This document shows positions 47,067 to 48,396 of a stretch of 48,685 nt of DNA, piece after piece. The notes below the pieces were generated by a model. That model was not told the origin of the DNA. It saw only the letters and a list, made by a program, of their open reading frames with translations, and made no database searches. This stretch comes from a virus (lineage: Duplodnaviria > Heunggongvirae > Uroviricota > Caudoviricetes), in IMG/VR virus record IMGVR_UViG_2541047926_000004, positions 1 to 48,685 of that record; one strand, 5' to 3'. How positions within the stretch are numbered: the first letter of the stretch is position 1; every line of letters begins with the position of its first letter. The position numbers and the translations under genes are program-made.

Positions 47067-47529
47067 CTTTTCTCGTAAAATCATCAAGTTACTATTGCAG
47101 TATTTTGCTTTGTTCAACACTAATGTGCAATTTTGCGCGTTGTAGGTGTGGCAAAATTGTGGCAAAGCTAATTGGTCAGCATTTGCATCATTACGCTAAA
47201 CAAACTACTTCCTTATAAACGTAATGTGTTGACCTTATCGATGCGTTGCATGAAAGACAGTTTAGTGATGAAAAATCTTATAAATTAACAGCTTAAATAC
47301 ATTATCCGATAGAGCTAAGTGCCAGAAAGGGACACTCAGGTTACATAACAATGAGTGATACAGTTCACGTAGTGAAGGTACTATGCCTAGGTGTTTGATT
47401 ACACTTTGATCATTGATGATACGCTCATGAAGGTATTACTTTCCTGTAATGAGCAGGTAGGTAACGATGTCGAACTAAATGAATTTATAGTAAACTTTGC
47501 AACAAGAGAACAAGGGAGTATGAGGGGTT

Positions 47530-48396
47530 ATGGCTACTGCAGAGCAGATCAAAGCTTTATTGAAAAGCCACGTTGATCGTGATGATCAGCGTTTCTTTTC
47601 TATTGCTTTGCAGGTGGCAGCTAAGGAAGCAAGGCAAGGTCATCATAAGCTTGCTAATGATATAAAAAACTTAGTTGATAAAAATCAGAAAACAACGAGT
47701 TCTGTAGGTTTAGTTGAAAAACGACTTACACCATTTGTTAAGCAGCCTGATGGTGATCTTAAGGGGTTACTTGAGCAAACGAACAAGCCAGTACATCTTC
47801 AAGATCTGGTGATTTCTGGAAGCGTTAGGGAAAGATTGAATCAGGTTCTGCTTGAACAAAAACAGAAAGATAAACTTTCTGAGTTTGGGCTTATTCCAAG
47901 AAGAAAAATTCTTTTCACTGGTCCTCCCGGTACTGGTAAGACAATGTCCGCATCAGTCATTGCTACAGAGTTAAAGCTACCACTTTATACAGTCGTCTTA
48001 GATAATCTAATCACTCGCTATATGGGTGAAACTGCAGCTAAGCTGCGTTTAATTTTTGACCACATACGGCAAACAAGAGCTGTATATTTTTTTGACGAGT
48101 TCGATGCTATAGGAACTCAGCGTGGCGCTCAGAATGACGTTGGAGAAATTCGTAGGGTCTTAAATTCTTTTTTAATGTTTGTAGAGCAGGATGATTCTGA
48201 GAGCATAGTTTTAGCTGCAACCAATCATCCAGAGCTTTTAGATCGCGCCTTATATAGACGATTTGACGATATTATACCGTTCACAAGGCCTGAGGATAAT
48301 CTAATCAGGAATCTTATTGAACAGAGACTCGCTGTCTTTGACCTCGGTAATTTATTTTGGAGTGAGATCATTGATAGTGCTTCAGGTCTAAGGTAA
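47530..48396 (+). CDS. AAA+ ATPase, C-terminus truncated by IS1
   Basis: Walker A GPPGTGKT, Walker B YFFDEFD; stop codon lies inside the IS1 terminal repeat. Confidence 0.7.
   Translation: MATAEQIKALLKSHVDRDDQRFFSIALQVAAKEARQGHHKLANDIKNLVDKNQKTTSSVGLVEKRLTPFVKQPDGDLKGLLEQTNKPVHLQDLVISGSVRERLNQVLLEQKQKDKLSEFGLIPRRKILFTGPPGTGKTMSASVIATELKLPLYTVVLDNLITRYMGETAAKLRLIFDHIRQTRAVYFFDEFDAIGTQRGAQNDVGEIRRVLNSFLMFVEQDDSESIVLAATNHPELLDRALYRRFDDIIPFTRPEDNLIRNLIEQRLAVFDLGNLFWSEIIDSASGLR

Follow-up and report, generated by a model that had tools for sequence, protein, structure and literature searches.

Features at the right end of the prophage

The DNA analysed here, which we call the window, is a stretch of 48,685 nucleotides in which a prophage is bounded on its left by an intact thrW gene and on its right by an exact repeat of the thrW 3' end. 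Beyond this repeat lie a short island arm, a truncated gene for an AAA+ ATPase (ietA') and the beginning of an IS1 element (Table 1). An earlier note on this DNA had placed the ATPase gene just outside attR, which holds in that attR ends at position 47066 and position 47067 is the first base beyond it, with the refinement that the first segment of the arm is non-coding and the gene itself begins only at 47530. The same note described the sequence beyond the prophage as AT-rich, in agreement with a GC fraction of 0.384 at positions 47001-48000 compared with 0.50-0.57 in the prophage body. A promoter scan of the island arm revealed no sigma-70 consensus promoter upstream of ietA', and an Rfam scan of the region around the gene gave no match.

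Table 1. Features of the window, with positions counted from its first base
Feature	Position	Strand	Evidence or remark
thrW, tRNA-Thr (anticodon CGT), intact attachment-site tRNA on the attL side of the prophage	1369-1444	+	ARAGORN; Rfam tRNA, 71.8 bits
STnc100 small RNA within the prophage	16729-16925	+	Rfam, 84.5 bits, above the gathering score
Pin-type invertase	43538-44128		cargo block
LEM-3-like GIY-YIG protein	44189-45013	-	
AraC-family regulator	45778-46530		cargo block
IS3-family integrase-core fragment	46572-46799	-	
47-nt exact thrW 3'-end repeat: prophage attR and left boundary of the IetAS island	47020-47066	+	alignment of attL, attR and FAM21845 thrW
Non-coding left island arm, upstream region of ietA	47067-47529	+	100% identical to the sequence after FAM21845 thrW
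20-nt motif	47147-47166	+	motif search of the window and island loci
ietA', truncated IetA AAA+ ATPase, 288 aa	47530-48396	+	ATG start; 287 native codons, Arg, then TAA supplied by IS1
Walker A, GPPGTGKT (residues 131-138)	47920-47943	+	nucleotide sequence and translation
Walker B region, YFFDEFD (residues 186-192)	48085-48105	+	nucleotide sequence and translation
IS1, first 294 bp, right-terminal-repeat end facing ietA	48392-48685	-	terminal repeat, DDE_Tnp_IS1, identity to known copies
insB, 3' part (C-terminal part of the IS1 transposase)	48407-48673	-	DDE_Tnp_IS1, PF03400

The prophage ends, just inside attR, in an AT-rich cargo block (43538-46799), which is also found at the end of prophages in strains DAM and LR-33 that differ in other respects. 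Between its GIY-YIG and AraC-family genes lies the 3' two-thirds of a tRNA-Ser gene (45139-45203, plus strand), which shares 98.7% identity with the tRNA-Ser annotated in about 5,400 E. coli genomes. ARAGORN, whose sole tRNA call in the window is thrW, does not report this fragment, and its Rfam match is weak and tRNA-like. It looks like a relic attachment site of another integrative element.

Assignment of the ATPase gene to IetAS

The product of the truncated gene carries the hallmarks of classical AAA ATPases, comprising the Walker A motif, a Walker B segment (VYFFDE, residues 185-190), a sensor 1 asparagine (N232) and the SRH arginines R243 and R244, and it matches the Pfam AAA family (PF00004) over residues 127-252 with E = 1.5e-29. 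The proposal that an AAA+ ATPase with GPPGTGKT and YFFDEFD motifs is encoded beyond the prophage is therefore correct, both by direct reading and by this match. Four PADLOC models for IetA recognize the protein from residue 2 on, the best of these (PDLC02196) with E = 9.4e-70 for residues 2-285 aligned to profile positions 2-283 of 374, and the intact 328-residue allele described below matches IetA with E = 5.5e-77. The PF00004 core, Walker A and B motifs, sensor 1 and SRH arginines of IetA align with those of other classical-clade AAA ATPases, including the CDC48/p97 D2 domain, NSF and AFG2. Unlike these proteins, IetA has a single AAA module preceded by an N-terminal helical domain of ~100 residues that lacks a Pfam match, and the protease with which it is paired has a gene of its own.

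The intact arrangement is present in E. coli FAM21845 (NZ_CP017220.1), where the island segment starts one base after thrW. In the coordinates of this segment, which are used below wherever FAM21845 positions are given, ietA occupies 605-1591 (987 nt; 328 aa, WP_001460375.1) and is followed after an 8-bp spacer by ietS at 1600-4089 (299899-302388 of the genome record; 2490 nt; 829 aa, WP_020244573.1). The 829-residue protein matches Pfam Peptidase_S8 (E = 4.3e-54) and PADLOC IetS (E = 2.9e-34). Given the IetA profile match and the adjoining IetS-matching S8 peptidase of the intact allele, we assign the locus to ietA-ietS, and the open reading frame of the window is recognizable from its sequence as a pseudogene remnant of ietA, a member of the known two-gene IetAS module.

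The 1326 bp at 47067-48392 are 100% identical to a segment of about 30 complete E. coli genomes, in which the gene is annotated as 'AAA family ATPase'. The window and FAM21845 share residues 1-287 of the protein, the 463 bp upstream of the gene and its place relative to the thrW 3' sequence. In contrast to the FAM21845 copy, that of the window lacks residues 288-328, ends in IS1 with no ietS next to it, and has a prophage between the gene and the intact thrW.

As recounted in a later study (PMC13069673, NAR 2026), IetAS was first described as a plasmid-stabilizing toxin-antitoxin pair in which a serine protease is the toxin and an ATPase the antitoxin (Yamamoto 2009), and its ability to protect against phages was shown subsequently (Gao 2020). 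The later study also states that a version of IetAS carrying a mutated ietA proved impossible to construct, and that the anti-phage mechanism is unknown (PMC13069673). Abortive-infection behaviour, triggered by YosG (yosG) of phage SPbeta, has been described for IetAS as well (bioRxiv 10.1101/2022.08.27.505566). The ietA-ietS pair of Agrobacterium pTiC58 (Yamamoto 2009, as cited in PMC13069673) belongs to the same family by PADLOC profiles and likewise encodes an AAA ATPase and then an S8 protease, whereas only a truncated A component is left in the window and the system cannot be called present.

The junction with IS1 and the sequence beyond it

Identity to the intact allele ends at position 48392, where the IS1 right terminal repeat GGTAATGACTCCAACTTATTG (also given as GGTAATGACTCCAACTTATTGATAG) begins; the base at this position (G) is common to the native ietA sequence and the IS1 end. 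The element is identified as IS1 by its terminal inverted repeat GGTAATGACTCCAACTTATTGAT and by the DDE_Tnp_IS1 transposase InsB. Over the first 294 bp, which are those seen in the window, it shows 100% identity to each of the two FAM21845 copies of IS1, and it is 97.5-98.4% identical to the annotated IS1A and IS1B copies listed among the matches in 9,418 records. Because the terminal repeat starts at 48392, the stop codon (TAA, 48394-48396) is IS1 sequence, just as the earlier note had stated.

An exact-sequence look-up of the 288-residue protein returned scaffold KE702177.1 (GCA_000461015.1) together with short Logan contigs, one of them 1.4 kb in length. All 11,156 of the 11,156 bases in which the window and the scaffold overlap are identical, and the overlap ends 294 bp into IS1 where a run of 1215 N starts, so that the window does end inside IS1, as had been noted, at the beginning of a scaffold gap. 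Past this gap, the scaffold carries, in order, a complete IS1 in the opposite orientation, a truncated minus-strand integrase gene, the thrW 3' end for a third time and genes of the ykfI/yafW type. The exact ietA'/IS1 junction was not found in complete E. coli genomes; three full-coverage matches to it were rejected on the grounds that they are joined pieces with IS1 at other positions.

With IS1 following codon 287, and with IS1 and an integrase stump past the scaffold gap, ietS does not directly follow ietA'. The locus thus fails the system-level definition of IetAS, since it has no adjacent IetS and its A component is incomplete.

Origin of the truncation

The island of FAM21845 contains a module composed of IS1(-), a pseudogene, ysgD, corA and IS1(+) (9715-12936 in the FAM21845 segment, L007), which is also present in 2013C-4991 (L002), B27 (L003) and the loci designated L009, L010 and L011. 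This composite-transposon-like module recurs in the island of at least six strains and carries a second copy of corA, the gene for an Mg/Co transporter. In LR-33 and TUM2820, corA is reversed relative to ietA.

The classical mark of adjacent deletion promoted by IS1 is an element end that stays in place while the DNA beside it shortens from case to case. We mapped the junction between the left IS1 of the module and the island in FAM21845 coordinates, and found it at 9714 in FAM21845 itself, 4347 in 2013C-4991, 1574 in B27, 1467 in the window and 1023 in DAM, ANT and VTB97584v. Here too, then, one IS1 end is fixed to the module and the junctions are nested (9714 > 4347 > 1574 > 1467 > 1023). 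The difference from the classical cases is that the deletions in this series are deduced by comparing natural genomes, and that the far side of the window IS1 falls in an assembly gap. The right IS1 of the source scaffold abuts FAM21845 position 13660, as opposed to 12936 in FAM21845 itself, which amounts to another adjacent loss.

The simplest explanation for the lesion is an IS1-adjacent deletion and not a simple insertion. An IS1 located downstream in the island, as the left arm of the IS1-ysgD/corA-IS1 module, would have promoted a leftward deletion that consumed island cargo, ietS and every codon of ietA beyond the 287th, leaving the IS1 end to supply the last codon (Arg) and the stop of ietA'. 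Under this model, no 9-bp duplication of a CAGGTCTAA-type target sequence is predicted at ietA'. The IS1(-) ... IS1(+) order on either side of the scaffold gap is that of the module, and the missing sequence therefore probably includes the ysgD-corA segment, which as a second copy of a chromosomal region would be collapsed in a short-read assembly. At 1215 N, the estimated gap falls short of this content by about 1 kb, as the rest of IS1 and ysgD-corA would occupy roughly 2.2 kb.

It is also conceivable, though we judge it quite improbable, that IS1 simply inserted into ietA and that the 3' end of the gene and an intact ietS persist past IS1, either in the gap or moved elsewhere by an inversion between IS1 copies. 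The two IS1 copies around the gap are indeed inverted and would permit such an event, the sizes of scaffold gaps are only estimates, and an independent IS1 insertion with a 9-bp duplication (FAM21845 2143-2151) exists in the operon of 14EC047. However, this arrangement needs about 3.1 kb (~474 bp for the rest of IS1, 124 bp for the ietA 3' end and 2490 bp for ietS) where the scaffold has 1215 N, and what lies past the gap is not ietS but an IS1 joined to a truncated integrase gene. Moreover, deletions into or through the operon that start from the same IS1 module are seen in five other complete genomes (2013C-4991, B27 and DAM/ANT/VTB97584v). Adjacent deletion therefore remains our preferred account, and with it we infer that ietS has been lost from the genome as a whole.

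Consequences for the IetA protein

Residues 1-287 of the truncated protein align with the intact E. coli protein (WP_001460375.1) at 100% identity. At residue 288 the truncated protein has Arg (AGG) where the native one has Ser (AGT), and the native residues 288-328 (SAAEITRASEDAAKESVLYNANNITTDLLVKAIKRRQESRQ) are missing, such that the product has 288 residues in place of 328 and falls short of the full-length form of IetA, which has about 325-330 residues and a complete AAA lid. The intact allele used for this comparison was taken from genome records because the identical E. coli cluster was missing from the output of the database homologue search, whose top match is 75% identical.

The 120 closest database homologues, which are 68-76% identical and 321-368 residues long (median 327), provide a second view of the cut. 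In every one of them the alignment reaches residue 320 of the intact protein or beyond, and a counterpart of the lost tail is recognizable in 120/120, with a median identity of 58.5%. The earlier note had proposed that the native C-terminus is missing, and had named homologues ending at the same position as the observation that would speak against this; the comparison finds a protein 41 residues short of its intact allele, and homologues that all extend past the cut.

In the AlphaFold model of a co-linear 328-residue homologue (75-76% identical to the truncated protein), the AAA lid consists of four helices at residues 256-266, 277-284, 289-306 and 313-325. The mean pLDDT of the model is 69, and values of 85-92 are reached over the last 70 residues and the last two lid helices. 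Placed on this model, the cut separates the second helix from the third, and those at 289-306 and 313-325 are lost. A HMMER comparison with the CDC48/p97 D2 domain sets the IetA segment SGLSAAEIT opposite QGFSGADIT, a conserved lid motif of classical AAA proteins, and the GLSAAE segment, the counterpart of GFSGAD in p97/CDC48, belongs to the lost part. What the stump retains is the N-terminal domain, Walker A and B, sensor 1 and the arginine fingers, or in other words the nucleotide-binding core and half a lid. Because the last two lid helices are lost, the model suggests that the stump is most likely misfolded or inactive. With a broken lid and no visible protease partner, we infer that IetAS is non-functional here and that the stump persists as a harmless relic.

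The retention of the N-terminal domain and of all the motifs of the nucleotide-binding core leaves some room for a different view, namely that the 288-residue protein is a functional orphan that still binds ATP and acts alone, for example as a dominant-negative regulator or as an anti-addiction antitoxin against incoming elements that bear ietS. The concept of orphan antitoxins is well established, the 287 native codons show no further decay (100% identity), and the same truncated allele occurs in several samples (an NCBI contig in 2, a Logan contig in 4, plus a similar one). We nevertheless give this view only a slender chance, given that the missing half of the AAA lid is a two-helix unit modelled with confidence, that all 120 homologues keep the tail at the identity given above, and that perfect identity is expected equally from a recent deletion. 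The DAM-type stump is even shorter, with 139 native codons, and there is no sign of selection for a particular length. The gene of B27, with a C-terminal loss of 5 codons, is still annotated as intact.

That the gene encodes some other AAA+ ATPase, such as a TRIP13-like CBASS accessory protein or a fragment of a generic FtsH/CDC48-type chaperone, is almost certainly wrong: the next PADLOC family is TRIP13 with weak matches (E = 6.5e-14) and the closest solved structures are CDC48/p97 D2 domains (E = 2.7e-43; a solved IetA structure was not found, and CDC48/p97 structures are the top PDB matches), but the IetA models outscore TRIP13 by ~180 bits and their match begins at residue 2 of the protein, the intact allele has the IetS-matching S8 protease 8 bp downstream, and CBASS genes are absent nearby in the FAM21845 locus, so that these readings are ruled out by profile score and gene context.

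Taken jointly, an ietA remnant at the thrW island that was cut by an IS1-adjacent deletion, with ietS lost and the stump non-functional, is the reading we favour, with a probability of roughly 0.85.

Mobile elements stacked at thrW

The earlier note had raised the possibility that a second island is stacked at the thrW hotspot, and had left the downstream context out of view. This possibility is now substantiated by FAM21845, where the same 1326 bp open an island of ~14.6 kb directly after thrW, and by scaffold KE702177.1, where the sequence past the gap contains the third thrW 3' copy and a CP4-6-like element. The island of FAM21845 has thrW repeats at both bounds and its own integrase, and its genes are arranged in the order thrW, ietA, ietS, higA, traJ/trbJ/trbL remnants, vbhA, IS1(-), a pseudogene, ysgD, corA, IS1(+), a hypothetical gene, the integrase gene, the thrW 3' copy and ykfI. 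The features of a tRNA-integrated island are likewise found around the window, with thrW 3' copies at 1398-1444 and 47020-47066 of the window and at 14249-14298 of the source-scaffold segment (L005), and with an integrase of family PF00589. On the evidence of these repeats and gene contents, three elements are stacked at thrW, namely the prophage, a stump of the IetAS island and the CP4-6-like element. The lambdoid prophage would have integrated into thrW later, displacing the IetAS island by about 45.6 kb.

CP4-6-type and other thrW elements have in common with this island the use of the thrW 3' end, the repeated att copies and tandem accretion. The IetAS island differs from CP4-6-type elements in its cargo (ietAS, higA, traJ/trbJ/trbL remnants and vbhA) and in having its own integrase at the right end. 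In the source scaffold, the integrase gene (13135-14160 of L005, minus strand) is cut at its 3' end by the second IS1 at ...GHKDPRM, with the loss of the last 17 residues. The LMRYYH segment with the catalytic tyrosine (RYYH) is present in the 357-residue integrase of FAM21845 and missing from that of the source scaffold. Because its integrase lacks the RYYH catalytic tyrosine, the island stump is unable to excise by its own recombinase.

A 20-nucleotide motif, TGTGGCAAAATTGTGGCAAA (also given as TGTGGCAANATTGTGGCAAA), is present in one copy at each end of the island, both on the plus strand. Beyond the copy listed in Table 1, it lies at 14183-14202 of the source-scaffold segment (L005), and in the FAM21845 segment (L007) its copies lie at 222-241 and 14708-14727. 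No other copy occurs in the window, where zero are expected by chance. The second copy sits beside the start of the island integrase gene, at the opposite island end, and the motif could be an arm-type recombinase site of the integrase.

RefSeq annotates a 112-nt 'tRNA-Ser' between the island integrase gene and ykfI of FAM21845 (14711-14822 in L007) that overlaps the 20-nucleotide motif. By position, this span should hold the right-hand thrW 3' copy (the integrase gene ends at 14685 and ykfI starts at 15204), and the annotation looks like an artefact. Strain DAM was considered as a direct relative of the source strain and rejected: it has the same cargo at the right end of its prophage, but the right-hand IS1/integrase junction is not shared, and DAM thus offers no template by descent for the sequence in the gap.

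Lesions of the operon in other E. coli genomes

The island arm is present at >= 99% identity in 34 of 5,426 complete E. coli genomes, and the operon carries lesions in 12 of these 34. The lesions take several forms. A 1-nt deletion in a C run at about codon 61 of ietS is found in 2013C-4991 and, over the same span, in HCP5S3_I4. Insertion sequences interrupt ietS in 730V1 (IS903B), LR-33 (ISSen4 plus IS3), TUM2820 (ISKpn26) and 14EC047/14EC017 (IS1), while ET881 has a 3' truncation of ietS. A deletion that removes ietS and reaches ietA, as in the window, is found in B27 and in DAM/ANT/VTB97584v.

Among the 34 complete genomes, all lesions inactivate ietS, and damage to ietA is confined to genomes that have lost ietS entirely; no genome with the island arm combines a damaged ietA with an intact ietS. 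Loss of the toxin first is the pattern expected of a pair in which IetS is the toxin and IetA the antitoxin. The support that this pattern lends is modest, as the independent events are few and deletions arriving from downstream cross ietS first.

Lesions are found in 10 of the 19 genomes where another element separates the island from thrW, compared with 2 of the 15 where the island adjoins thrW, an association that we take as a lead (Fisher p = 0.03; collapsing obvious clones gives p = 0.006; both without phylogenetic correction). We inspected the inserted element in seven genomes, and in six of these (2013C-4991, B27, DAM, LR-33, TUM2820 and the window) genes of prophage type flank the island; in the seventh, 730V1, an Avs2 gene alone was seen. 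One hypothesis suggested by these genome comparisons is that decay is non-random, with active IetAS abortive infection conflicting with lysogeny by phages that integrate at thrW, such that loss of the system would accompany acquisition of a prophage. We regard this as unlikely; if it were true, the order of loss would reflect the toxicity of IetS in nature.

Several of the elements lying between thrW and the island carry defence-type genes beside attR. Examples are the Avs2 gene of 730V1 (1-1070 in L008), a type II restriction-modification pair near attR in B27 (1593-4269 in L003), and genes for a DEAD/DEAH helicase and an SMEK-domain protein near attR in 2013C-4991 (1603-7286 in L002). In 2013C-4991 and 14EC047, the DNA past the IS1 module encodes a NACHT-domain protein. 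The surroundings of thrW behave like a hotspot for defence genes.

Implications

This locus is an ordinary case of a defence operon eroded by an insertion sequence, given that IetAS, IS1-adjacent deletions and islands in tandem at thrW have all been established before, and that up to the break the sequence of ietA' does not differ from catalogued RefSeq proteins. Its value lies in what can now be said of a stump otherwise annotated anonymously as an 'AAA family ATPase', which becomes an annotated pseudogene of a known defence system, with the practical consequence that the strain from which it comes should not be scored as IetAS-positive. The locus also documents thrW as a site with at least three mobile elements stacked, and together with its relatives it provides a clean natural series of IS1-adjacent deletions eroding a defence operon. 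Finally, the finding that the toxin gene is lost first gives modest support, at the level of the population, to the assignment of IetS as toxin and IetA as antitoxin in E. coli.
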